DNA of 64,000 nucleotides. It comes from Clostridiales bacterium. Its GTDB lineage: Bacteria > Bacillota > Clostridia > Christensenellales > Borkfalkiaceae. Under the pieces are notes generated by a model that saw only the letters and a program-made list of their open reading frames with translations, was not told the origin of the DNA and did not search any database. Below are positions 3,135 through 62,132 of this stretch, piece by piece. The stretch is from NCBI GenBank assembly GCA_003538975.1, contig DPQQ01000007.1, positions 17,408 to 81,407 on the forward strand. Direction: 5' to 3'. Positions within the stretch are counted from its first letter, which is position 1, and each line of letters starts with the position of its first letter. A program made the translations under genes and the position numbers.

Positions 3135-3223
3135 CAAACAGATAAAAAAAAATAAAACCGATTAAAAAATCAATGACCGCAGAATATGCGGAAAATAAAA
3201 GGGGAAACCCGAAGGAGAAATAT

Positions 3224-6200
3224 ATGAAGAAGGTATTGATGATTTTACTTGCCGTTATATTCTCGCTGGCGGCGATATTCGCGGCGGCGTGCGGCAAAAA
3301 AGGCGATTCGTCCGGTAACGGCTCGGGAGAACCGGGCGGAGGAACTTCAGGCGGCGGCCAGCAGGAGCAGGAAAAACAGATAGAAGAGACTAAGACTGAA
3401 ACTCTGGAATCCGCTTCCGCAATGTATTCGTCGGCATCCGTTCAGAGTATGAGCGCGGAAGAAAAGTTTACCGTAGATATTTATTACAGTTACTTTTTAG
3501 GCGAAATTTCAGACTTTACCGGCAGTATAGAAGAAGTAAAAGCGCATACGGCAGAACTTCTGAGAGAGTTCGAAGAAATAATACAAAACATTTCGAAAAA
3601 AGCAGAAACGCTTGCGGAAGTAAAACAAAAGGCATTGACCGAAATCAAAGCGGTTTACGATTCCGCGGCGATGCTCGCAGGCGGCGCGAAAAATTACGTT
3701 ACCGCGGCTTATAACGAGATAAAAACCGAAATCGAATCCGCAACGAAGGAGAAAATCCCGGAACTTGTAGCAAAGTTCAAGGCGGAAGCGTACGAATATT
3801 TTAAGGAAAAGGTAGAATTTGCAGCCGAAGAAATAAAGTCGCTCGCAGAAGCGGAGCTTAACAGAATTGTAAACGAAATAAAAACTAAAATCGAAGATTC
3901 TGAAATTACGGCGAAGATAACCGAATATTACGCTTTGGCAAAAGAAAAAATCGAAGCGGCTGCGGGTACGGACATAGACGGAATTATCGCGGCGGTTAAA
4001 TCGGAAGCGGCTTCAAAGACGAAAGAATTTGCCGCGGAACAAATTTCGAAATATAAAACAGCGGTAAAAACATACATAGACGGTATCGTGAACACAGCGC
4101 TCTCTAAAATAGAAGATCAGGAACTTAAAACCGATCTTACGAATTATTACAATGCGGAAACTAAAAAGCTCGAAGCCATAAGCAGCATAGATACGGCAAA
4201 AATAACGGCGGAAGAAATTAAGGCTGATACCGAAGAGTTTGTTAAAACTCAGATCAAAAAACAGGTAGATAAATTTAAGACCGCCGCCAAAGAAAAGTTA
4301 GACGGCTCAGTAAACGCGGCTCTTTCTAAAATAGAAGATCAGGAACTTAAAGCCGACCTTACGAATTTTTATAATACCGAATCCGCAAAGCTTGCTGCCG
4401 TAAATAACATAGACACAGCAAAAGCGACCGTCCGGGAAATAGTTTCCGACACCGAAACGTTTGTTAAAAATCAGCTTTCAAAGCAGGTCGAAAAATATAA
4501 GACTGCGGCGAAAGCGTATATAGATAAGATCGTAAACGCAGCGCTCTCTAAAATAGAAGATCAGGAACTTAAAACCGATCTTACGAATTATTATAACGCC
4601 GAAACTAAAAAGCTCGAAGCTATAAACAGCATAGATACGTCAAAAACAACGGCGGAAGAAATTAAGGTCGATACCGAAGAGTTTATTAAAACTCAAATCA
4701 AAAAACAGGTAGATAAATTTAAGACCGCAGCCATGGAAAAACTTAACGAAGCTCATAACGCTGCGATAAGTAAGCTTAAAAGCGAAAGCGCAAAGGAAAA
4801 ACTTACGGTTGCTTATAACAATTCGATTAAAGGATTCGATGCAATAATCGATATAGACACGGCGAAAGCGGCTCTTGATAACGCCGTAGCGGAATACAAA
4901 ACCGCGGCGGAAGGAATAATAAAAGACGAAATATCCGTTTTTGTCGAGTCGGCGAAAGAAAAAATTAAAAAAGTTTACGATACAGCTTCGAAGCCGTTGA
5001 CCGCACAGGCTAAAGATAAGCTCGAAGAAATTTATAACGACGCTATCGCCGATCTTAAAACGATAAAGACGGCAGACGATGTCGAAAGAGTTATGTCCGA
5101 CTTTGAAACCGCCGCTAAAGAATACGTTATAGAAGCGTTGAATGCGATTTTCGAAAAAATGGGCGAAGTTCCCGATCCGTGGCAATTTCTTCCGGAAAGT
5201 TTCGGCGTGAAAAATATGCTTGTTTCTGAGAATAATATCCCCGATTACGTTGATTTTACCGCGGTAAGCGCGATTCCGCAGAATTATATAGGCAAAGGTT
5301 TGAACGTCGTTTATAAAGCTCTCAATAAAACGACGACGGCAATAGGCTATGTAAATAAGGTTCACGCCGTATTTAATACTGTCGGCAGCGTTTACAACAC
5401 GATTTTAGAAAACGCCGACGGGCAGGATCTTACGATAGAAGCCGGTTCGGTTGTTCTTACGATAAAGTTAACGACCGATAGCTATAAGATTCTCGCTAAA
5501 ATAGGTCCCGTTGAAGTCGAACTGTATTCCTATCTCGATAAAACTTATTACGGGGCGAGAGTGCAGCTTGCTTCAAATACGGTAGCTAAATATACCGTAA
5601 CCGAAAAAGAATTTATAATGGCAATAGATATAGCGGATACCTACGTTACGCATATTTCTTTCGTAAAAGAAGGCGGGACGACAGTGGGACACGTTTACGA
5701 AACTATCGTAGCGCAGGATAAAACCCTTACTTCGACGAGTTCGCTTGTTACCGTGAAAGACGGCTTTACCACCGTTGTCGGCAACAAGGGCGACTTTATC
5801 CCAACGAGCGGCGGCATTAACTGCGAAGTTTATGAAAATTCTACGGGAAGATTTGTCGGAAGCGAAGTATACGAAGAAATAAGCGATAACAAATTTTACG
5901 ATACACTTTGGTATAATTTAAGAGATATTGAAGGAATAAATACCGTTAAAAAGGAAGACAAGGCAAACGGAACGAACGCCGATACCATATACATAAACGG
6001 CGCGACCGACACTATACACACCAAGTTTGTCAGCATTACCGATTTTTCGAGAAGATTCGATATAGAATTTAAAAAAGTTTATGCGTTTACCTATAACGAA
6101 GAAACCGAAGAATACGACAGCGTAGAGTTCGAAGTGCCGATGATGTTTGTCCAGGAAAAACATGCCGATACGTTCGCAAGCGATTTCGAAGACAAAAATA

Positions 6201-6355
6201 AAAACTCCGTGGAAAGCGGGACAGTCGGAATAATTGCTTCCGAAGCGACTAAGACCGCAGTAAATTATGGGTATCATACGCTTGTAGAAAGCTATAAGAA
6301 GATAAAAGATCTTATAACTTATCAGAACGTGGTGGATTTTTGTAAACAGAAATAA
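3224..6355 (+). CDS. Large surface lipoprotein (about 1044 aa): signal peptide with lipobox, Gly-rich linker, long alpha-helical repeat region, non-repetitive C-terminal half
   Basis: MKKVLMILLAVIFSLAAIFAAACGKK is a lipoprotein signal. Three 74-aa tandem units begin KTAxK..ID.IVN.ALSKIEDQELK.DLTN.YN. A terminator follows. Confidence 0.8.
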   Translation: MKKVLMILLAVIFSLAAIFAAACGKKGDSSGNGSGEPGGGTSGGGQQEQEKQIEETKTETLESASAMYSSASVQSMSAEEKFTVDIYYSYFLGEISDFTGSIEEVKAHTAELLREFEEIIQNISKKAETLAEVKQKALTEIKAVYDSAAMLAGGAKNYVTAAYNEIKTEIESATKEKIPELVAKFKAEAYEYFKEKVEFAAEEIKSLAEAELNRIVNEIKTKIEDSEITAKITEYYALAKEKIEAAAGTDIDGIIAAVKSEAASKTKEFAAEQISKYKTAVKTYIDGIVNTALSKIEDQELKTDLTNYYNAETKKLEAISSIDTAKITAEEIKADTEEFVKTQIKKQVDKFKTAAKEKLDGSVNAALSKIEDQELKADLTNFYNTESAKLAAVNNIDTAKATVREIVSDTETFVKNQLSKQVEKYKTAAKAYIDKIVNAALSKIEDQELKTDLTNYYNAETKKLEAINSIDTSKTTAEEIKVDTEEFIKTQIKKQVDKFKTAAMEKLNEAHNAAISKLKSESAKEKLTVAYNNSIKGFDAIIDIDTAKAALDNAVAEYKTAAEGIIKDEISVFVESAKEKIKKVYDTASKPLTAQAKDKLEEIYNDAIADLKTIKTADDVERVMSDFETAAKEYVIEALNAIFEKMGEVPDPWQFLPESFGVKNMLVSENNIPDYVDFTAVSAIPQNYIGKGLNVVYKALNKTTTAIGYVNKVHAVFNTVGSVYNTILENADGQDLTIEAGSVVLTIKLTTDSYKILAKIGPVEVELYSYLDKTYYGARVQLASNTVAKYTVTEKEFIMAIDIADTYVTHISFVKEGGTTVGHVYETIVAQDKTLTSTSSLVTVKDGFTTVVGNKGDFIPTSGGINCEVYENSTGRFVGSEVYEEISDNKFYDTLWYNLRDIEGINTVKKEDKANGTNADTIYINGATDTIHTKFVSITDFSRRFDIEFKKVYAFTYNEETEEYDSVEFEVPMMFVQEKHADTFASDFEDKNKNSVESGTVGIIASEATKTAVNYGYHTLVESYKKIKDLITYQNVVDFCKQK
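4055..4720 (+). repeat. Three tandem 222-bp in-frame repeats inside the lipoprotein gene; units 1 and 3 are about 93% identical at nucleotide level
   Basis: Direct read of the sequence. The three units span 4055-4276, 4277-4498 and 4499-4720, and older degenerate copies lie on both sides. Confidence 0.85.
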
Positions 6356-11040: not shown

Positions 11041-12303
11041 ATGAACGCAAAAAAGAAAGCTCTTAAAGAGACGGCGGCAAATCAGATGCCAGAAAAGAAG
11101 CAGGAAGTAATCTATATAGACGACTTGTTCAACAAAAAAACAGACAACACTTACGTTACCCTTCCGGATACTTCGACAGAAGCGAAGAATACCGACGAAG
11201 TAATGAAGGCGGCTAAAAAGAGACTTAATCTCGAAGGCTGGATACAGGCGCTTTTGTCGGGCGGCATAGTTGCTCTTCTTGCAACGTTTGCGGTTTCGAT
11301 GGTATTCTGGGCGATAGGCGCATCTAAATACTGGATAGCGTTCATAGTTCTCGGTGCGGTTTTCGCCGCAGCGACGCCGATTTTCTTCTTCTGTAAATAT
11401 CGTCCCGACGAAAAGGCGGTCGCGAAAAGATTGGACGAGCTCGGACTTGACGAAAGAGTTCTTACGATGGAAGAGCTTAAAGGCAACGATTCGTTCATGG
11501 CGAAACGTCAGAGAACCGATACCGTACGTTCGTTAGGAAAGGTAAAAGCAAATCTCCTTAAAATAGTCGCTTCGGTACCGCTTATTATATTATGCACTAC
11601 CGCGTTTATACTCGGCGGCGGTATGACTACCGTTTCGGGACTTACGGCTGCGGGGTATGTAAAGAGCGGCAAAGATATAGCTCAGGATATAGACGACGCC
11701 AATAAACCCGTTTATGAAGTAAAATATAGCGTTGAGGCAAGAGAAGCCTCACAGGAGGACAGCTTTTTTGGTGGATTCTCTATTATGTTCGACGTTCATA
11801 AAGGCGTGGGCGGAGAGATCATCGGTGAAGAAGAACAGCTGGTAACTCAAGGCGAAGACGCTACTGAAGTAACAGTAGTAGAATATGAAGGTTACGTATT
11901 TTACGCATGGTCAGACGGCGTTCAATCGCCAACGAGAACAGATTTAAATGTTCAGGGCGATATAAGCATTACGGCTATATTCGTAAAAATGGACGAGAAT
12001 GAAGATAGTGACGGTAACGGCGATGGCGATCCTTCCGACGGCGAACCCAGTGAGAAGGAACCTGGAGACAAGGAACCGAGCGATAATAACAGCGACGGCA
12101 ACGGAAAAGACGATACTAACTTGGACAACACTGCAAGTACCGATTCGAGAAACCAGGTTTTGAACGGAAAAACATATTACGGCGGAAAGAATTACGACGA
12201 AGCTAAAAGCGAAGCTTCTGATAAAGCATCCAAAGACGGCAACATGTCTTCCGATAAGAAAAATCTTATAAACGATTATTTCGAAGCCATCAAGAAAAAC
12301 TAA
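11041..12303 (+). CDS. Hypothetical membrane protein with an acidic low-complexity C-terminus (420 aa)
   Basis: RBS aaaggagg is present. Two pairs of transmembrane helices are followed by a D/E/S/G-rich tail. Confidence 0.6.
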   Translation: MNAKKKALKETAANQMPEKKQEVIYIDDLFNKKTDNTYVTLPDTSTEAKNTDEVMKAAKKRLNLEGWIQALLSGGIVALLATFAVSMVFWAIGASKYWIAFIVLGAVFAAATPIFFFCKYRPDEKAVAKRLDELGLDERVLTMEELKGNDSFMAKRQRTDTVRSLGKVKANLLKIVASVPLIILCTTAFILGGGMTTVSGLTAAGYVKSGKDIAQDIDDANKPVYEVKYSVEAREASQEDSFFGGFSIMFDVHKGVGGEIIGEEEQLVTQGEDATEVTVVEYEGYVFYAWSDGVQSPTRTDLNVQGDISITAIFVKMDENEDSDGNGDGDPSDGEPSEKEPGDKEPSDNNSDGNGKDDTNLDNTASTDSRNQVLNGKTYYGGKNYDEAKSEASDKASKDGNMSSDKKNLINDYFEAIKKN

Positions 12304-12316
12304 ACGATAAAAAGTA

Positions 12317-12350
12317 AAATCGCCGGACAATCCGGCGATTTTTAGTTTTT
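12317..12350 (+). terminator. Rho-independent terminator (aaatcgccgga-caa-tccggcgattt-tt)
   Basis: Perfect 11-bp stem plus a T-run. Confidence 0.85.
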
Positions 12351-12464
12351 GATAAAAAATCAAAATCGATTGTATTTTTATTTTGTATTTAATGAAGAAT
12401 TTATAAAAAGTTATTTTTTACTGCGGCCGGCGAATTCAGACAAAATTAAAAAATTTAAGTACGC

Positions 12465-12493
12465 TTGCAATTCCGCCCGCGGCGGTTTATAAT
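12465..12493 (+). promoter_or_regulatory. Sigma-A-type promoter TTGCAA-N17-TATAAT upstream of the ECF sigma gene
   Basis: Hexamers read directly. The leader to the start codon is long and AT-rich. Confidence 0.45.
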
Positions 12494-12616
12494 AAACTAA
12501 TAAGGCTTTATACCTTATAAAACAATATAAAATAAAAATTTAAATAAAATATTATAATAATTTATTACAATAATTGCGATAAAACTTGAATCTGAAAAGT
12601 TATTATATCGAAGAGG

Positions 12617-13258
12617 TTGAAAGTGGAGTTAACGACAATACAAAATACGCGCGATTTATGCCGTAATATTGATTTCAGCGAAAATCCGGAAGCGTTAGCT
12701 TGTCCTTCGCCCGAATTCAGGGGAAGGAACGACTACGTCGAAGCTCTGATAGCAGCGGTTGCCGAAGGCAATAAAAACGCTCTCGCCGCGCTTTATAAAG
12801 AAGTTTCTACCGACGTATACGCTTACGCTCTTTCAAAAACAAAAAACAAGGCGGACGCCGAAGACGTTTTGTCGGACACGTTCGTTCAGATTTATAAATA
12901 CGCCAAAAGATACGAAAATATGGGAAAGCCCATGGCATGGATACTGACCATAGCCACAAACCTTATAAATCGCCAGTTCAATCTTAAAAACAGAAGCGTT
13001 TCGCTCGAAGATAATCAGATTGCGGTTGACGGATCTAATTATATCGAGAGTTCCGAACAGACGACGGTCAACAATCTTTACGTTAAAGAAATGCTTGCAA
13101 AACTTAACGAAGAAGAAAGAGAAGTGGTGGTTCTTCATCTCGTATCGGGGCTTAAACACAGAGAAATAGCGAAGATGCTCGATAAACCGTTATCAACGAT
13201 TTTATCCAAATATAACAGAGCGATAGCCAAACTGAAAACCGTAAAGGGGAGTGTATGA
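12617..13258 (+). CDS. ECF-family RNA polymerase sigma factor (sigma-70 regions 2 and 4)
   Basis: Region 2 reads DAEDVLSDTFVQIYKY and the region 4 HTH reads LKHREIAKMLDKPLSTILSKYNRA. The start is the TTG from the ORF track, or the GTG one codon in, which has an AAGAGG RBS. Confidence 0.85.
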   Translation: MKVELTTIQNTRDLCRNIDFSENPEALACPSPEFRGRNDYVEALIAAVAEGNKNALAALYKEVSTDVYAYALSKTKNKADAEDVLSDTFVQIYKYAKRYENMGKPMAWILTIATNLINRQFNLKNRSVSLEDNQIAVDGSNYIESSEQTTVNNLYVKEMLAKLNEEEREVVVLHLVSGLKHREIAKMLDKPLSTILSKYNRAIAKLKTVKGSV

Positions 13259-14364
13259 ATAAAGATTTAAACGACAAATTAAAATCTGCGTTCGAATCCG
13301 AAACCCCCGACGTTTTAGCGGAAGTAATGGCTCGTCTGGACGATACCGTTCAGCTCGAAAAGGAACCGATCGTTTTAAGTGCGGTTACTTCCTCGAAAAA
13401 AGGGAAGCATGCCGAAAGAAGATTCAAATATAAACCGGCTTTCACCTTTTTAAGAAGTTGCGCTTACACCGCGATGATCGCCGCGGGCGTAATTATCGGG
13501 GGATTCGCAACGTTCGGATACAATCCGACGGAATACGCAATGACTGCTTCCGCTACGAGCGTTTATATAGACGTCAATCCGAGTATAGAGTTTTCGCTCG
13601 ACGAAGACGCAAACGTTTTAAGCGCGACGGCAATAAATAAAGACGGCGAAGAAGTATTAAACGGTATCGATCTTAAAAAAGAAGAATTCGGAACGATGAT
13701 AAAAACCGTTCTTCACGAAATGTATCAAAGCGGTTATATTCAGAGCGATTCGACGACGGTTCTTTTGAGTGTAGAAGGATCCGTTTCCGATAATTTTGTC
13801 CGCGGAATGGTAGGATCGGTTAACGAAGCGTTTAGAAAGTCCGGTAAAAAGTGCGCCGTAATCGCACAGAGAATAGCTCCCGGCGAAGACGTGATAAAAG
13901 ACGCAAAAGACAAAGGCGTTTCGGTAGGCAAGTATTCGCTTGTCAGAAAGTTGATAGACAAAGGAGCGGTTGCTCCTGATGTGAACGACGACAGAAATTT
14001 ATTCGGCGATCCGATTTCGGAACTTTGCAATATGCCTATAAAGGATCTGAGTCTTATGTATTCGACTTATGTAAATTACGCCGCCGGCGGAGATCCTTTT
14101 TCGGGCGACGTCGTGTATAAATCAGACGATTTTAATTTTTCCGGATATTGTGCCGTAAATAACGCGCTTACAAACGTACTTTCGAGAGAAGGCAAAACAC
14201 AGGAAGACGTTTTAAGCAAACGTATTTACGCCATAGCGGAGTTTCGCGGGGGAACGCCCGTAATGTACTATTATGTGTATATAAAATACGAATCCTCCCC
14301 TAATATTGAACATTTTTACAAGATAGACGCTTTAAGCGGAACGATTTCAGGAACCTGCGCATAA
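13255..14364 (+). CDS. Putative anti-sigma factor (short cytoplasmic N-terminus, one TM helix, large extracytoplasmic domain)
   Basis: The ATGA start/stop overlap with the sigma gene implies translational coupling. The single TM helix lies about 65 aa into the protein. Confidence 0.6.
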   Translation: MNKDLNDKLKSAFESETPDVLAEVMARLDDTVQLEKEPIVLSAVTSSKKGKHAERRFKYKPAFTFLRSCAYTAMIAAGVIIGGFATFGYNPTEYAMTASATSVYIDVNPSIEFSLDEDANVLSATAINKDGEEVLNGIDLKKEEFGTMIKTVLHEMYQSGYIQSDSTTVLLSVEGSVSDNFVRGMVGSVNEAFRKSGKKCAVIAQRIAPGEDVIKDAKDKGVSVGKYSLVRKLIDKGAVAPDVNDDRNLFGDPISELCNMPIKDLSLMYSTYVNYAAGGDPFSGDVVYKSDDFNFSGYCAVNNALTNVLSREGKTQEDVLSKRIYAIAEFRGGTPVMYYYVYIKYESSPNIEHFYKIDALSGTISGTCA

Positions 14365-15586: not shown

Positions 15587-16714
15587 ATGAAGATAGGATT
15601 ATTCGGCGGAACGTTCGATCCCGTTCACGACGAACACGTTAAAATCGTAACCACCGCCATAGCCGAACTTAATCTGGATAAGGTAATCGTTCTTCCTGCG
15701 TACGTCTCGCCTTTTAAAGACAGAGCGGACACAAGTTCCGAAGAAGACCGCCTTAATATGGTAAGGCTCGCTTTTGACGGAATCGAAAGGGTTGAAGTTT
15801 CCGATTACGAAATAAAAAAGGCCGCCGTCAGTTATACGAGCGAGACGGTAACCTATTTTAACAAGCTGTATAAAAAGGACGATCTGTATTTTATAATGGG
15901 CGAAGACAGCCTTAAAACTTTCAGGAAATGGAACCGCCCCGACGTTATCGTAAAAAATGCCGAAATAGTCGTTTGCGGAAGATACGGAAGTTACGTCGAT
16001 TTTGACGCCGAACAGAATTACTTCGACCTTCATTACGGTAAAAAGTTTATAAAGACGGATTACGAAGGCTCTTCGGTATCGTCCACCAAAGTAAGAACGT
16101 ATTCGAGACTTAACATTCCGCTCGGCGGCATGGTCCCCGAAAAGGTCGGAAAGTATATTAAAGAAAAGAATCTCTACGGAGTGAACGATTATACCGAATA
16201 TTTAAGATCGGTTCTTACCGAAAAGAGACTTATCCACACCGCAAACGTCGTTACCGCCGCGCTTATAAAAGGAAAAGAATTAAAGCTCGATTCCGAAAAA
16301 GTCGAACTTGCGGCAACGCTTCACGACCATGCGAAGTATCTCGATCCCGAAAATTACAAAAACTTCAGATACAAAGGAATTCCGCAGCAGGTCGTACACG
16401 CGTATCTCGGCGCGTATCTTGCCGAAACCGAACTCGGAATTACGGACAGGGACGTTCTGGACGCGATAAAATATCACACGACCGCAAAGGCAGGCATGAC
16501 GGACCTTCAGAAGCTTATTTTTACTGCGGACATGATTGAAGACGGCAGAGATTACGACGGAGTCGAAAGACTCAGGGAGCTTTTTTATACCGAGGCTCTG
16601 GACGTATCCTTCAAGGCGTGCTTAAAAGAAGAATGCGAACATCTCGCCGCGAAAGGTTACGAACTTTTCGTAGAAACGCTGAACGCGGCTAAATACTACT
16701 TAAAAAACAAATAA
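15587..16714 (+). CDS. nadD: Bifunctional fusion: nicotinate-nucleotide adenylyltransferase NadD (N-terminal) with HD-domain phosphohydrolase YqeK (C-terminal)
   Basis: GGTFDPVH is the nucleotidyltransferase motif. The C-terminal HD domain carries LHDHAKY. There is no stop codon between the two halves. Confidence 0.9.
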   Translation: MKIGLFGGTFDPVHDEHVKIVTTAIAELNLDKVIVLPAYVSPFKDRADTSSEEDRLNMVRLAFDGIERVEVSDYEIKKAAVSYTSETVTYFNKLYKKDDLYFIMGEDSLKTFRKWNRPDVIVKNAEIVVCGRYGSYVDFDAEQNYFDLHYGKKFIKTDYEGSSVSSTKVRTYSRLNIPLGGMVPEKVGKYIKEKNLYGVNDYTEYLRSVLTEKRLIHTANVVTAALIKGKELKLDSEKVELAATLHDHAKYLDPENYKNFRYKGIPQQVVHAYLGAYLAETELGITDRDVLDAIKYHTTAKAGMTDLQKLIFTADMIEDGRDYDGVERLRELFYTEALDVSFKACLKEECEHLAAKGYELFVETLNAAKYYLKNK

Positions 16715-17187: not shown

Positions 17188-17451
17188 TTAATCCCGGTTT
17201 CCGGACGACTTTTTAAATGAAATTCTCGTAATTCCGTCCGGATCTATCACTATGGTTTTGCCCTGTTGCCTTTTCCTTTTAGGTTTGACAGGCGGCTTTT
17301 GTTCTTTCTCAGGCTCTTTGCGGGTGCGCTTAAAATCAAAGCGTATCCCTAAGAAGTCGAAAGCGGCTTTCATGCCGAAAACGATTATAAAACTTATTAT
17401 AAAAATAAATACGGTCCATAAAAAACCGTTTATCACGTTCAGACTTTCCAT
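17188..17451 (-). CDS. Hypothetical small membrane protein (87 aa)
   Basis: One TM helix is followed by a basic tail. There is no homology anchor. Confidence 0.35.
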   Translation of the reverse strand: MESLNVINGFLWTVFIFIISFIIVFGMKAAFDFLGIRFDFKRTRKEPEKEQKPPVKPKRKRQQGKTIVIDPDGITRISFKKSSGNRD

Positions 17452-17639
17452 AACGCAAGTTTAGCAATAAATATAGCGAAAATCATGTAAAAAAACGGCG
17501 CAATATGTAAAAAGACGGAGAAACGTTCAAATAAACCGAAAAAGTTATTCAAGTTCTTGCATATCGCGAAAAAATGTGATATAAAATAACTGTACTGTTC
17601 CGGACGGCTGAAAACATGTCCGGGCAAGAAAACAAAATA

Positions 17640-17787
17640 ATTTTAAATTCTTTGGGGTGAGGCGTAATTCCTTACCGGCAGTATAGTCTGCGAGCCTTGC
17701 GGCACGATTCGGTGCGATTCCGAAACCGACGGTAACAGTCCGGATGGTAAAAGAATCGTTTTTTCGCGCCCCGAAAGGGGCTTTTTT
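17640..17787 (+). promoter_or_regulatory. FMN riboswitch (RFN element) with terminator / RBS-sequestering hairpin
   Basis: ggggtgaGGcgtAATTCCttACCGGCaGTAtAGTCtGCGAg...GATTCCGaaaCCGACgGTaAcAGTCCGGATGgtaAAAGAa matches the RFN consensus. The hairpin cgcgcccc-gaaa-ggggc-tttttt abuts the ATG. A TTGCAT-N17-TATAAA promoter lies at about 17565. Confidence 0.85.
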
Positions 17788-18798
17788 ATGAAAAAAATTT
17801 TCACTGTAAGAAACATTTCCGGCATGGCGGTATTTGCCGCGCTCGCTTATCTCATAAGCTTTATCGAAATTCCGATTTTCCCGTCGGCGAGCTTTCTGAA
17901 GCTCGACTTCGCCAACGTGTTTATCATGCTCGGCGGGTTTATGTACGGGGTTATACCGGGCATTATAATAAGCGCGATAAAAGAATTTTTGTGCTTTATC
18001 ACAAAGTCTTCGACGGGCGGCGTAGGGGAAATCGCGAACTTTCTGACGACGCTTGCGTTTATCGCTCTGCCCGCAACTCTTTACAGATTCAAAAAGGGAC
18101 TGAAGGTTGTTATTCCGTCGCTTATAGCCGCGTGCTTTTTGCAGACGGGGGCGAGCCTTCTTGCAAACAGATTTATCAACTTTCCGCTGTTCGGAATAGC
18201 GAATTTATTCGGAAGCTTTTTCTGGATAATCATAGCGTTTAATATGATAAAAAGCGTTTCGGTTTCGATAATAACCGTGCTTTTGTATAAGAGGGTTAAC
18301 GTGCTGTTCAAAAAAATTCATTTAAAAACCGACGATTCTTCCGCTCCTGCTTCGGACGAGGCAAAAAAGAATAAAAAATCCCGCTATAATGCGGACGAAT
18401 TTATTTCAAAGTCCGAAAAGGAAACGATAGCTTTTGCCGAAAATCTGGCTAAAACCCTGGAGGGCGGCGATACGGTAAGTTTGTCCGGCGATCTTGGCGC
18501 CGGCAAAACCGCGTTTACCAAAGGTCTCGCAAAGGGACTCGGAATAACGGATCCCGTTACCAGCCCCACTTACGCATATCTTAACGTTTACGGCGATAAG
18601 CTGTATCATTTCGATTTTTATAGGCTTCACAGCGGCGAGCAGGCGGAAGCCCTGGGACTTACCGAATACTTTAACGCGGATAACGTATGCGTAGTCGAAT
18701 GGGGCGAAAACGTTAAAGAAATTCTCCCGGAAAGAATGATAAAAATAAATATCGAAAAGCTCGGTAAAAATAAGCGCAGAATAACCGTGACAAGATAA
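17788..18798 (+). CDS. In-frame fusion: ECF-transporter S component (RibU-like riboflavin transporter, residues 1-175) joined to tRNA t6A biosynthesis protein TsaE (residues 205-336)
   Basis: The N-terminal six-TM S component sits behind the FMN riboswitch. The C-terminus has the TsaE motifs GDLGAGKTAFTKGL, SPTYAY and YHFDFYRL...EWGE. There is no in-frame start codon or RBS in the linker. Confidence 0.8.
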   Translation: MKKIFTVRNISGMAVFAALAYLISFIEIPIFPSASFLKLDFANVFIMLGGFMYGVIPGIIISAIKEFLCFITKSSTGGVGEIANFLTTLAFIALPATLYRFKKGLKVVIPSLIAACFLQTGASLLANRFINFPLFGIANLFGSFFWIIIAFNMIKSVSVSIITVLLYKRVNVLFKKIHLKTDDSSAPASDEAKKNKKSRYNADEFISKSEKETIAFAENLAKTLEGGDTVSLSGDLGAGKTAFTKGLAKGLGITDPVTSPTYAYLNVYGDKLYHFDFYRLHSGEQAEALGLTEYFNADNVCVVEWGENVKEILPERMIKINIEKLGKNKRRITVTR

Positions 18799-18913
18799 CC
18801 GCGGTTTGCTTTTGCGGGTAACGGTTCGTCGAAACCGATCCGTAATTTATAATAAAGGAAAGAATTCTAATTATAAAACGAGCATATAGGCGGCGGATAA
18901 AACGGAGAGATAT

Positions 18914-19519
18914 ATGAATTATATAGCGATAGACACATCCGACAAACATCTTACGATAATAGTAAAAAAAGACGGAAAGTTTTACGAATTTTTTACCGAA
19001 GACAGCGGTAAAAAACACTCCGTTATGCTTATGCCCGAACTCGAAAAGCTTCTTCTCGAAGCGGATATGTCCGTAAAAGACGCCGATTTTTACGCGTGCG
19101 TTACGGGGGCGGGATCGTTCACCGGAATAAGGATAGGCATATCCACAGTAAAAGCGTTTATGCTTTCTTCCGGCAAGCCGTGTCTTGCGGTAACTTCGTT
19201 CGACACGCTCGCATACAATAAACAAGGTAAAGTTCTCGCTGTGATAGACGCAAATCACGACGCATATTACGTCGCGGGATACGATGGCGGCAAAGTAATT
19301 CTTCCGCCGTCGTTTATGCAAAAATCGGAAGTCGAAAAAATAGTCCCGGAGTACGAAATTATTGTTTCATCCACGGTAACGCCTTTCGGCGGAGAGATAG
19401 TATCGAGATCAGGCGGACTTAAAAAGGCAATCGAAAGTAAAGAAACGGAACTTTCTTCCGATCCGGAATCGCTCGTTCCCGTTTACGTCAGAAAGTCGCA
19501 GGCGGAGGAAGGCAGATGA
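18914..19519 (+). CDS. tsaB: tRNA threonylcarbamoyladenosine biosynthesis protein TsaB
   Basis: YIAIDTS...GAGSFTGIRIGIS matches the YeaZ family. It follows tsaE as in the Bacillus ydiBCD locus. Confidence 0.9.
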   Translation: MNYIAIDTSDKHLTIIVKKDGKFYEFFTEDSGKKHSVMLMPELEKLLLEADMSVKDADFYACVTGAGSFTGIRIGISTVKAFMLSSGKPCLAVTSFDTLAYNKQGKVLAVIDANHDAYYVAGYDGGKVILPPSFMQKSEVEKIVPEYEIIVSSTVTPFGGEIVSRSGGLKKAIESKETELSSDPESLVPVYVRKSQAEEGR

Positions 19520-20058
19520 CCGCCGAAGAAAAAATCAATGAAGACTTAACGAGTCTTTCGGGTTATACGATAAGAGATATAGATGCATCGGATATAGAGA
19601 ATATCGCCGCCATGCATAAAGAAAATTTTTCGGACTGCTGGACGGCCGATATGATAAAAGGCTCGTTTTACTCGGACGGGTTTTACGGCGGTCTTATAGA
19701 AACATATGACAATCGGGAACAACAAACCGGAACCTGTATCGTTGAAAACGTTCCGCAATCCGAAGATAATACGAAAAAAATCGCCTGTACGGTTATGTTT
19801 TCTTCGGTACTGTGCGAAGCGGAACTATTATCCGTGGTGACAGAGCGATCTTTCAGAAGAAAAGGTCTCGGAGAACTTTTATTAAAAAGATATTTTGATA
19901 AGCTGAAAGCGGACGGAGAAAAGACGATTTTTTTAGAAGTCAGAGAGAGTAACAAAGCGGCGATTTCGCTTTACGATAAGCTCGGCTTCGTAAAAATATC
20001 CGAAAGAAAAAAATATTACGGTGAAGAGACCGCTGTCATAATGCGGAAGGAGTTATAA
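19516..20058 (+). CDS. rimI: Ribosomal-protein-alanine N-acetyltransferase RimI (GNAT)
   Basis: An ATGA overlap with tsaB is present. The GNAT motif reads RRKGLGELLL...IFLEVRESNKAAISLYDKLGF. Confidence 0.8.
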   Translation: MTAEEKINEDLTSLSGYTIRDIDASDIENIAAMHKENFSDCWTADMIKGSFYSDGFYGGLIETYDNREQQTGTCIVENVPQSEDNTKKIACTVMFSSVLCEAELLSVVTERSFRRKGLGELLLKRYFDKLKADGEKTIFLEVRESNKAAISLYDKLGFVKISERKKYYGEETAVIMRKEL

Positions 20059-32663: not shown

Positions 32664-32712
32664 AAACCGAATAAAAATTGACTACTCGCAAAAAAGCGGA
32701 TATAATATAGGT

Positions 32713-33858
32713 ATGAAAGAAATTTACCTTGACAATTCCGCAACCACGCCGCTTTCGGAAGAAGTTCTTGCGGCGATGACTCCGTATCTTACGGGGAATT
32801 TCGGCAACCCGGACAGTCTTCATTCTTACGGGCGTTCGGCAGTCAAAGCCGTTGACGAAGCGAGAGATCTTATTGCGGAATGTCTGCATGCGAAATCAAA
32901 CGAAATATATTTTACGTCGGGAGCGACCGAGAGTGATAACTGGGCGCTTAAAGGAACGCTCGCCGCGAGTAAAAAGGGCAAGCACGCTCTCGTAAGTTCG
33001 ATAGAACATCCCGCGCTTATCAAACCCGCAAACTATCTTAAAACCCGCGGCTATGATATAGATTTTATTCCCGCCGACAAAAGCGGAATAATAGACGTAG
33101 ACTTCTTAAAAAGATCCGTCCGGGGCGATACCGTCATAGTCTGCTGCATGACCGCAAATAACGAAATCGGAACGATTCAGCCGGTGGACGAAGTGGTTAA
33201 AGCCGCAAAATCCGTAGGAGCTTACGCCATGACGGACGCCGTGCAGGCGGTAGGTGCGCTCGATATATCGGTAGATAAGACCGGGGTGGATATGCTTTCG
33301 CTCTCCGCGCATAAGTTTTACGGCCCTAAAGGCGTTGGGCTTTTATACGTGAAAACGGGAGTGAAAATCGATCCGCTTGTCGAAGGCGGCGAGCAGGAGC
33401 GAAAAAAACGCGGCGGCACGACAAACGTCGCGGGGGTTGTAGGTATGTCGGTTGCTTTAAAAAGAGCGATCGACGACAGAGAAGTCAATTCGGCTAAAAT
33501 TTTAGCCTTGCGCGAACGCTTTGTAGACGAAGTTCTGTTTGGCATAAGCGGCGTAAAGTTAAACGGCGACAGAGAAAAAAGGCTGCCGCTCAACGCTGAC
33601 TTTTCGTTCGAAGGAGTAAACGGCGAAGCTCTTTTATATAATCTCGATTTGGCGGGGATAGCCGCTTCTAACGGTTCGGCATGTTCTTCCGGTACGGTGG
33701 AGCCGTCGCACGTTTTGTCCGCAATAGGACTGAGCGCAAAAGAAGCTTCGTCTTCCGTACGGTTCACGTTTGGCAAAAACAACACGGCAGAAGAAGTGGA
33801 TTTCGCCGCAAAAACGCTTAAAACATGCGTAGAAAGGCTAAGAAATCTGCAAAAATAA
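32713..33858 (+). CDS. Cysteine desulfurase (NifS/IscS-type)
   Basis: The protein begins IYLDNSATTP. SAHKFYGPKGVGLLYV carries the PLP lysine. SSGSAC provides the active-site cysteine. Confidence 0.9.
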   Translation: MKEIYLDNSATTPLSEEVLAAMTPYLTGNFGNPDSLHSYGRSAVKAVDEARDLIAECLHAKSNEIYFTSGATESDNWALKGTLAASKKGKHALVSSIEHPALIKPANYLKTRGYDIDFIPADKSGIIDVDFLKRSVRGDTVIVCCMTANNEIGTIQPVDEVVKAAKSVGAYAMTDAVQAVGALDISVDKTGVDMLSLSAHKFYGPKGVGLLYVKTGVKIDPLVEGGEQERKKRGGTTNVAGVVGMSVALKRAIDDREVNSAKILALRERFVDEVLFGISGVKLNGDREKRLPLNADFSFEGVNGEALLYNLDLAGIAASNGSACSSGTVEPSHVLSAIGLSAKEASSSVRFTFGKNNTAEEVDFAAKTLKTCVERLRNLQK

Positions 33859-61949: not shown

Positions 61950-62032
61950 TGGTGCGGATAAAGGGATTTGAACCCATACGGTTGCCCACAGGAACCTGAA
62001 ACCTGCGCGTCTGCCAATTTCGCCATATCCGC
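61950..62032 (-). tRNA. tRNA-Leu (anticodon CAG), type II with a long variable arm
   Basis: Reverse complement of the + strand: GCGGATATGGCGAAATTGGCAGACGCGCAGGTTTCAGGTTCCTGTGGGCAACCGTATGGGTTCAAATCCCTTTATCCGCACCA. The acceptor stem is 7 bp, the anticodon loop is TTCAGGT, and CCA is encoded. Confidence 0.8.
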
Positions 62033-62058: not shown

Positions 62059-62132
62059 TGGAGCAGGTGAAGGGAGTCGAACCCTCGAGTGTTGCTTGGG
62101 AAGCAACCGTTTTGCCGTTAAATTACACCTGC
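62059..62132 (-). tRNA. tRNA-Gly (anticodon CCC)
   Basis: Reverse complement of the + strand: GCAGGTGTAATTTAACGGCAAAACGGTTGCTTCCCAAGCAACACTCGAGGGTTCGACTCCCTTCACCTGCTCCA. The anticodon stem is GTTGC/GCAAC and the loop is TTCCCAA. Confidence 0.8.

Follow-up and report, generated by a model that had tools for sequence, protein, structure and literature searches.

We analyzed a 64,000-nucleotide (nt) stretch of contig DPQQ01000007.1 from a Clostridiales bacterium (the window, meaning that whole stretch at its full length), in which a flavin mononucleotide (FMN) riboswitch precedes a single open reading frame (ORF) joining RibU, the S component of an energy-coupling factor (ECF) riboflavin transporter, to TsaE. 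TsaE is the ATPase subunit of TsaBDE, the complex that makes N6-threonylcarbamoyladenosine (t6A) in tRNA, and acts catalytically on TsaBD. The gene tsaB and a rimI-like gene follow in the same direction. An earlier note, made from the sequence without database searches, had described this arrangement as a fusion lacking precedent or, failing that, as an assembly error. The features of the locus are as follows.

17557-17585 (+): candidate promoter of the riboswitch unit, TTGCAT-17 nt-TATAAA, with TGa before it (extended -10-like)
17644-17759 (+): FMN riboswitch aptamer, RF00050 covariance model, 98.9 bits
17768-17787 (+): expression platform, a GC hairpin GCCCCGAAAGGGGC (17768-17781) plus a T6 run, a predicted intrinsic terminator
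17788-18798 (+): ribU::tsaE fusion gene, 336 amino acids (aa), a single ORF
17788-18318 (+): RibU-type ECF S-component domain, aa 1-177, six transmembrane helices (PF12822, RibU structures, structural model)
18319-18399 (+): linker, aa 178-204, disordered (predicted local distance difference test score, pLDDT, below 50 at aa 184-201)
18385-18390 (+): relic -10 element TATAAT, codons Tyr200-Asn201, recognized by DNA comparison with split and fused relatives
18400-18795 (+): TsaE domain, aa 205-336 (PF02367, TIGR00150)
18487-18510 (+): Walker A motif GDLGAGKT of the TsaE domain
18799-18913 (+): 115-nt spacer before tsaB, with a weak hairpin without a T-run, an isolated TATAAT (18848-18853) and a Shine-Dalgarno (SD) sequence, GGAGAG
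18914-19519 (+): tsaB (TIGR03725, 120.6 bits against a cut-off of 69.3; PF00814)
19516-20058 (+): rimI-like gene for a GNAT-family acetyltransferase, overlapping tsaB by 4 nt (PF00583 and position)

The frame is uninterrupted from 17788 to 18798, and profile hidden Markov models match both of its domains, as the earlier note had proposed. In the N-terminal half, PF12822 (ECF_trnsprt) matches aa 13-167 with 66.2 bits (cut-off 30.7). PF07155, the family of ECF-type riboflavin transporters, matches under its cut-off (18.3 versus 26.7), so the riboflavin assignment rests on RibU homology and on the riboswitch. When the sequence was compared with solved ECF S components, RibU alone was matched (5KC0, E = 1.2e-19; 3P5N, E = 1.6e-17). 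The AlphaFold model resembles RibU of T. maritima and S. aureus with TM-scores of 0.92 and 0.86, respectively, compared to 0.43 to 0.68 for ThiT, FolT, BioY and PanT. The riboflavin-transporter type suggested earlier is thus both the sole sequence match and the best fold match. From the ThiT and ECF literature, an AxxxA motif in transmembrane helix 1 docks the S component onto EcfT; of 31 aligned fusions, at least 90% have the corresponding A14 and A18. No EcfAA'T module was found among the window ORFs scanned, which make up part of the window.

The C-terminal half is a complete TsaE, again as claimed. PF02367 matches aa 208-331 with 138.7 bits (cut-off 26.6), and the equivalog model TIGR00150 scores 133.5 bits against a cut-off of 60.1. 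In addition to the Walker A motif, this half carries the SPT, HFDFYR and EW motifs, so that all signature motifs are present. It folds like YdiB of Bacillus subtilis (5NP9), YjeE of Haemophilus influenzae (1HTW) and TmTsaE in the TsaB2D2E2 complex (6N9A chain E), with 35 to 44% identity to solved TsaE structures. Canonical TsaE is a free-standing, soluble protein of ~150 aa with its own start, whereas here it is the C-terminal domain of a membrane protein, joined to six transmembrane helices and without a start of its own (aa 173 to 231). In the AlphaFold model, both domains exceed a pLDDT of 90 on either side of the disordered linker. Given the published topology of RibU and the positive-inside rule, the even helix count and the Lys/Arg-rich flanks at both ends place the TsaE domain in the cytoplasm. 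Both ends of RibU would then be cytoplasmic and the fusion would be tethered to the membrane.

The fusion is real and widespread. Independent samples, comprising human-gut and other metagenome assemblies made with various assemblers, yielded at least 21 contigs (28 index blocks) that encode the identical 336-aa protein with unchanged neighbors, and the 90% identity cluster of the window protein has 79 members. Among the best 120 database matches, ~117 clusters (90% identity) hold both Pfam domains in one protein, at ~99% coverage and 38 to 99% identity to the window protein; an exhaustive search of 50%-identity representatives returned ~30 that span both halves, down to ~31% identity. The closest relatives (59 to 99% identity), whose arrangement the earlier note had singled out for checking, are one ORF without an internal start. 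Across the 31 aligned fusions, residues G234, G237-T241, S259-T261, H274, D276, Y278, R279, E304 and W305 are invariant, while the linker varies from 9 to 47 aa, is unconserved in sequence and has indels that are always in frame. The invariant motifs and in-frame linker indels indicate that both domains, as well as the unbroken frame that joins them, are under purifying selection. A lost stop codon or frameshift that artificially joins two genes in the window could be mimicked by a one-base error, since distant relatives have split ribU and tsaE genes with gaps of, in some cases, just 2 to 16 nt. Against such an artifact stand the identical product on independent contigs with its 79-member cluster, the ~117 diverged clusters that keep one ORF with in-frame linker indels, and the lack of any ATG in the window lineage where a separate tsaE would have to begin. 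We give this explanation virtually no credence, and the fallback offered in the earlier note, a one-base assembly error, is ruled out by the independent contigs and the diverged one-ORF clusters. In databases, the fusion proteins are annotated as plain TsaE, a label that conceals the transporter half.

Upstream of the fusion, the FMN riboswitch is full-length. The RF00050 match fixes the aptamer boundaries sought by the earlier note at 17644-17759, covering model positions 1-138 with a score well above the gathering score (98.9 versus 66.2 bits; E = 1.1e-21), and a custom covariance model (R1) scores the same aptamer at 110.7 bits. The hairpin GCCCCGAAAGGGGC begins eight bases past the aptamer and runs into TTTTTT, followed immediately by the ATG at 17788. 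The sole purine-rich SD-like sequence of the leader, AAAGGGG, lies within the hairpin loop and 3' arm; the hairpin can therefore serve as an intrinsic terminator and as a sequestor of the ribosome-binding site alike, both of which had been envisaged. Homologous expression platforms were present in 22 of 24 related loci, nearly throughout as a GC hairpin followed by a T-run and often with the 3' arm serving as the SD sequence, and transcription attenuation would therefore be the conserved mode. Since the minimum free energy of the whole leader showed no significant extra stability over shuffled sequences (z = -1.26), the leader structure rests on the covariance model. The element at 17557-17585, picked out by eye, may be the promoter of the riboswitch unit; the consensus promoter scan did not call it, and its -35 hexamer matches the consensus at 3 of 6 positions.

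A scan of species-representative genomes yielded at least 15 loci matching both halves. Inspection of their ORFs rejected the reading of these double matches as further fusions: all but one (L008) are two adjacent genes 2 to 80 nt apart, with tsaE starting at its own ATG, and three more loci have ribU 0.5 to 2 kb upstream of tsaE. These split relatives share 33 to 57% identity with the window protein. They include the cultured Soehngenia longivitae (Tissierellia) and Thermovorax subterraneus DSM 21563 (Thermosediminibacterales), as well as Anaerococcus, Christensenellaceae metagenome-assembled genomes (MAGs), "Ca. Scatosoma," "Ca. Gallimonas" and "Ca. Fimimonas," so a riboswitch-ribU unit beside a separate tsaE-tsaB-rimI module is found in Clostridia, Tissierellia and Thermosediminibacterales. 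Directly upstream of ribU, 13 of 14 split loci carry an FMN riboswitch that passes the gathering score. Of the 9 fused lineages inspected at the DNA level, 8 have kept it, whereas ~58 unrelated stand-alone tsaE loci searched with the custom covariance model gave no such riboswitch. We read the split arrangement as the ancestral state, which is compatible with the fusion. The earlier note had held that close relatives with separate genes and an internal promoter would speak against a fusion; at 59 to 99% identity the genes are fused, and split genes with such a promoter appear at 33 to 57% identity, where they represent that ancestral state.

Several split or stand-alone loci have peculiarities of their own. 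In a Christensenellaceae MAG (L035), an FMN riboswitch at 4744-4871 (-) diverges from a stand-alone tsaE whose ATG lies at ~5010. A record titled Parasutterella excrementihominis, a betaproteobacterium (L003), carries a split ribU-tsaE pair of clostridial type without a riboswitch, and its contig is probably mis-binned or mislabeled. In one split subclade (L010, L012, L014 and L015), RibU has a C-terminal extension of ~60 aa with an extra hydrophobic helix at its end (e.g., ...AIALASVIAAVLLLLLFALLRYFLWD). Such a seventh transmembrane helix would place the C terminus outside, which would be incompatible with a fused cytoplasmic TsaE.

The split loci reveal how tsaE was probably transcribed before fusion. 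In 10 of 17 of them, an exact TATAAT lies 6 to 9 nt ahead of the tsaE ATG (TAGAAT in one more), with a -35 element of the TTGCAA, TTTACA or TTGCCA type ~17 nt further up and no space for an SD sequence; in some loci, the promoter lies 17 to 40 nt ahead of the ATG. The same -10/ATG geometry was found in 2 of 59 unrelated tsaE loci used as a control. A consensus scanner calls TTGCAA-17-TATAAT (10/12) in L013 and in the fused L089. With a standard transcription start ~7 nt past the -10 element, a TATAAT this close to the ATG implies a leaderless mRNA, and the tsaE transcripts of split lineages would thus be leaderless or nearly so. Possession of its own promoter by tsaE also means that tsaE-tsaB-rimI was ancestrally transcribed independently of the riboswitch. 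In one subclade (L010 and L012 to L015), a long inverted repeat, 15 bp in L013, and the T-run behind it span the tsaE -10 element and start codon. It looks like a ribU terminator set atop the tsaE promoter, which would insulate tsaE further; alternatively, it could be an operator for a dimeric repressor. This junction lies at 5600-5635 in L013, and the T-run is read as the Val-Phe-Leu of "MAVFLS." Within the window itself, a class-V aminotransferase gene (NifS/IscS-like; 32713-33858, +) starts with TATAAT-ATAGGT-ATG (32698-32715). This is the geometry of the ancestral tsaE start and suggests that leaderless mRNAs may be used in this organism.

Remnants of this promoter persist inside fused genes. 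In two fused lineages (P0078/L083 and P0086/L089), TTGCAA-N17-TATAAT-N6-ATG is intact and in frame, read as ...(L/F)AK...VYNxxM..., and these lineages probably make both RibU-TsaE and free TsaE. Judged by protein sequence, "YNxxM" survives in 25 fused clusters, "YN" alone in 10, including that of the window, and the Met alone in another 10, while 74 have neither; the internal promoter and Met are thus retained in approximately one-fifth of fused lineages and both are lost in most. In the window, the TATAAT at 18385 is preceded by a decayed -35 element (AGGCAA, with a 20-nt spacer), GAA stands in place of the ancestral ATG, and the promoter scan does not call the element. That scan called 6 promoters in the window (3.7 ± 1.7 expected), none of them on the forward strand of the linker or the tsaB spacer; on that strand, 18799-18913 yielded neither a promoter nor a terminator.

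These remnants bear on whether the fused ORF, although real, still gives rise to free TsaE through an internal start, the relic TATAAT or proteolysis, such that tether and flavin control would be only partial. The earlier note had seen no stop codon, ribosome-binding site or start codon between the halves. The junction indeed has no in-frame stop and no ATG, GTG or TTG from aa 173 to 231; the note overlooked the TATAAT in the linker and a GTG codon for residue 172 (18301) that follows AAGAGGG at a distance of 5 nt. This SD-like context of GTG172 and the one-fifth of fused lineages in which dual products are plausible both speak for free TsaE, as does the linker, which is modeled as disordered and would hence be accessible to proteases. 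However, AAGAGG merely encodes the conserved Lys-Arg pair that closes transmembrane helix 6 (where Y167 and K168 are invariant), and no conserved cleavage motif exists in the linker. A leaderless mRNA requires a 5' AUG and the relic offers none, with its Met replaced by GAA, its -35 element decayed behind a 20-nt spacer and no promoter called by the scan. Furthermore, the 74 clusters without Met and TATAAT still hold an intact TsaE. Production of free TsaE alongside the fusion is therefore unlikely in our judgment.

Fusion appears to have happened more than once. In a neighbor-joining tree of 32 fused proteins and 15 split pairs (314 columns), none of 100 bootstraps recovered the fused proteins as monophyletic, and at least 4 changes between the fused and split states were required (median 6). 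A single origin of the fusion is thereby ruled out.

Downstream, the order of genes is that of the canonical operon, and the earlier note's statement that tsaB and rimI follow is borne out with one qualification. The tsaB product passes TIGR03725, whereas the GNAT protein scores 79.6 bits with TIGR01575, slightly under the cut-off of 86.4, so the gene is named rimI-like on its position, which is kept in all related loci. Both genes lie directly downstream of the fusion in the window and in 9 of 9 fused lineages examined, and tsaD is absent from the operon and from the window. Synteny among fused lineages runs obg - nadD/HD - rsfS - ... - fusion - (yhbY) - tsaB - rimI - alpha/beta-hydrolase - murF-like, and in most of them tsaB or yhbY overlaps the fusion stop codon by 4 to 8 nt. 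The fused TsaE therefore sits in the canonical operon slot. No second tsaE or ribU was found in the window, and no second TsaE in the ±5-kb flanks of related loci.

An alternative is that the fused TsaE is a co-opted paralog that acts on RibU or the ECF transporter as a regulatory or energizing ATPase, with a separate housekeeping tsaE responsible for t6A. Conserved fusions often signify functional interaction (Rosetta-stone logic), and the adjacency of ribU and tsaE across Clostridia, Tissierellia and Thermosediminibacterales would fit such an interaction. Against it, the fused copy occupies the tsaE slot before tsaB-rimI, often with translational coupling, its TIGR00150 score is at the equivalog level with every TsaE signature motif invariant, the tsaE of split relatives has a ribU-independent promoter, and the window and all flanks searched lack the second TsaE that the hypothesis needs. 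We consider it very unlikely.

Instead, we propose that RibU-TsaE is a genuine, selectively maintained protein that arose from merged neighbors, and that its TsaE depends on the riboswitch and is tethered to the membrane, a reading we hold to be likely. In the ancestor, an FMN-riboswitch-controlled ribU would have lain directly 5' of tsaE-tsaB-rimI, with tsaE transcribed from a separate sigma-70-type promoter (TTGCAA-N17-TATAAT). Once the ribU stop codon was lost, ribU and tsaE would have shared one frame. Some lineages would have kept the promoter and Met inside the ORF, yielding the fusion and free TsaE, and most, including that of the window, would subsequently have lost the Met and the -35 element. 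In the window organism, a transcript would start from the putative promoter near 17557-17585 and its leader would fold as the FMN aptamer. When FMN is bound, the terminator at 17768-17787 would form and transcription would end ahead of the ATG; when FMN is absent, RNA polymerase would continue through ribU::tsaE. Since no convincing terminator follows the fusion stop codon, the transcript probably runs on into tsaB and the rimI-like gene. High FMN would thus lower RibU-TsaE and probably the co-directional tsaB-rimI too. The product would insert as a RibU S component, with TsaE hanging in the cytoplasm on a flexible tether of ~27 residues. Because there is no internal start and the transcript is gated by the riboswitch, TsaE would be made here only as the tail of RibU, and in the window organism it is apparently solely membrane-tethered and produced from transcripts that escape the terminator. 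As TsaE is catalytic on TsaBD, basal read-through may be enough, and in a riboflavin-auxotrophic host complete repression by the riboswitch would be rare. The OFF logic of the riboswitch and the canonical activity of both halves are presumed.

Several observations weigh against this reading. GTG172 could in principle start a soluble TsaE with a 33-aa N-terminal tail, and any residual promoter activity of the TATAAT elements at 18385 and 18848 would loosen the control of tsaB-rimI by the riboswitch. One fused lineage (P0081, L081/L082; fusion at 5001-6002) has no FMN riboswitch, which shows that the fusion can exist without such control. In that lineage, the fusion ORF begins 3 nt past an HD_4-domain gene and the operon looks constitutive. 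The tree is a simple neighbor-joining one with moderate support (58 to 64%) at some key groupings. The earlier note's suggestion that t6A genes fall under flavin control stands in part. For TsaE, the sequence of this lineage supports it; for tsaB and the rimI-like gene we only infer it, since the 115-nt spacer and the relic -10 boxes leave weak internal promoters possible.

Whether such control was itself selected is a separate question. Adaptive coupling would mean that selection put TsaE, and with it t6A and translation capacity, under flavin status at the membrane. In favor of this hypothesis, obligate fusions form the majority, loss of the internal promoter recurred, many lineages have t6A genes behind the fusion that overlap it, and 8 of 9 fused lineages kept the riboswitch. 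In contrast, we know of no biochemical link between flavins and t6A synthesis, which proceeds through TsaC/Sua5 and TsaBDE without a flavin. Fusion and fission are both frequent, suggesting weak selection on the state itself, the P0081 lineage dropped the riboswitch, and some split lineages set a strong hairpin and T-run over the tsaE promoter, insulating it from ribU. On balance, we regard adaptive coupling as quite unlikely. Because the state flips often, P0081 lost its riboswitch and some split lineages insulate tsaE, the fusion is most likely a tolerated result of gene adjacency rather than an evolved flavin-t6A circuit.

Each part of the locus has known counterparts. FMN riboswitch-ribU (ypaA) units of Bacillota, for example those of B. 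subtilis and Lactococcus lactis, share with the window the aptamer family, the terminator-type OFF platform and the transporter family, but in the window the frame extends through a complete TsaE, with tsaB and rimI behind it. A regulon survey from 2013 describes ribU as the typical FMN-regulated transporter in Firmicutes and reports no genes under FMN control other than those of riboflavin biosynthesis and transport (PMC3766115). The tsaE-tsaB-rimI(-tsaD) operon, ydiB-ydiC-ydiD-ydiE in B. subtilis, has the same gene order as the window, where TsaE scores at the equivalog level; the difference lies in the loss of a soluble, separately started TsaE. The split FMN-ribU/P(tsaE)-tsaE-tsaB-rimI loci share the riboswitch, gene order and most neighbors with the window and differ in having two ORFs and a tsaE with its own promoter. 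Kae1-Bud32 of some archaea (e.g., Methanocaldococcus MJ1130) is the known Rosetta-stone fusion in the t6A pathway. There, a t6A subunit is likewise fused, but to a partner from the same complex, whereas the TsaE of the window is fused to a functionally unrelated vitamin transporter. Nothing in the searchable literature links RibU or an FMN riboswitch to TsaE, YjeE or YdiB. The lack of precedent claimed in the earlier note thus applies to that literature and not to sequence databases, which already hold a large family; the RibU-TsaE architecture is undescribed yet widespread, with an unusually legible evolutionary history.

The wider neighborhood contains further features. A nadD-like cytidylyltransferase and an HD domain (YqeK-like) share one 375-aa ORF (15587-16714, +), a second fusion of neighboring genes in this cluster that is present in every related locus (376 to 383 aa). 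Relatives, whose synteny is otherwise conserved, lack an insertion present here between obg and nadD (11041-14364, +), which encodes an InlB-B-repeat protein together with an ECF-type sigma factor and an RsgI-like anti-sigma factor. A small ORF of 87 aa (17188-17451, -) separates rsfS from the riboswitch and is annotated as a gene in every contig of the same species; its product has a hydrophobic N terminus and a basic tail and matches no Pfam family, and an ORF of 81 to 86 aa occupies that place in L085 and L090. For the 1,060-aa ORF at 3173-6355 (+), no Pfam match reached E ≤ 1e-5. As expected of a housekeeping region, the window also has two tRNA genes (61953-62032, -; 62062-62132, -) and a ribosomal protein L10 leader (RF00557; 29828-29956, +; 64.6 bits).

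TsaE, the least understood t6A subunit, is proposed to bind TsaBD and leave it again in a cycle that permits multiple turnovers. A large family in which it would be permanently tethered therefore tests how much free diffusion the TsaBD cycle needs. In this family, a vitamin-sensing riboswitch also precedes a gene for a tRNA modification that is nearly universal and often essential. The series from split genes through dual products to obligate fusion provides a clean, datable case of neighboring genes merging, in which the merging gene drops its own promoter and takes over the regulation of its neighbor. We speculate, while regarding it as rather doubtful, that in obligate-fusion cells the sole TsaE resides on a membrane vitamin transporter at a dosage set by FMN, with flavin status modulating t6A and decoding. 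If so, the reset of TsaBD that permits multiple turnovers would have to take place at the membrane, and a previously unknown link between a nutrient and tRNA modification would exist. The family would then also include "gene-within-a-gene" intermediates, in which a promoter and leaderless start are read as Leu-Ala-Lys...Tyr-Asn-x-x-Met.

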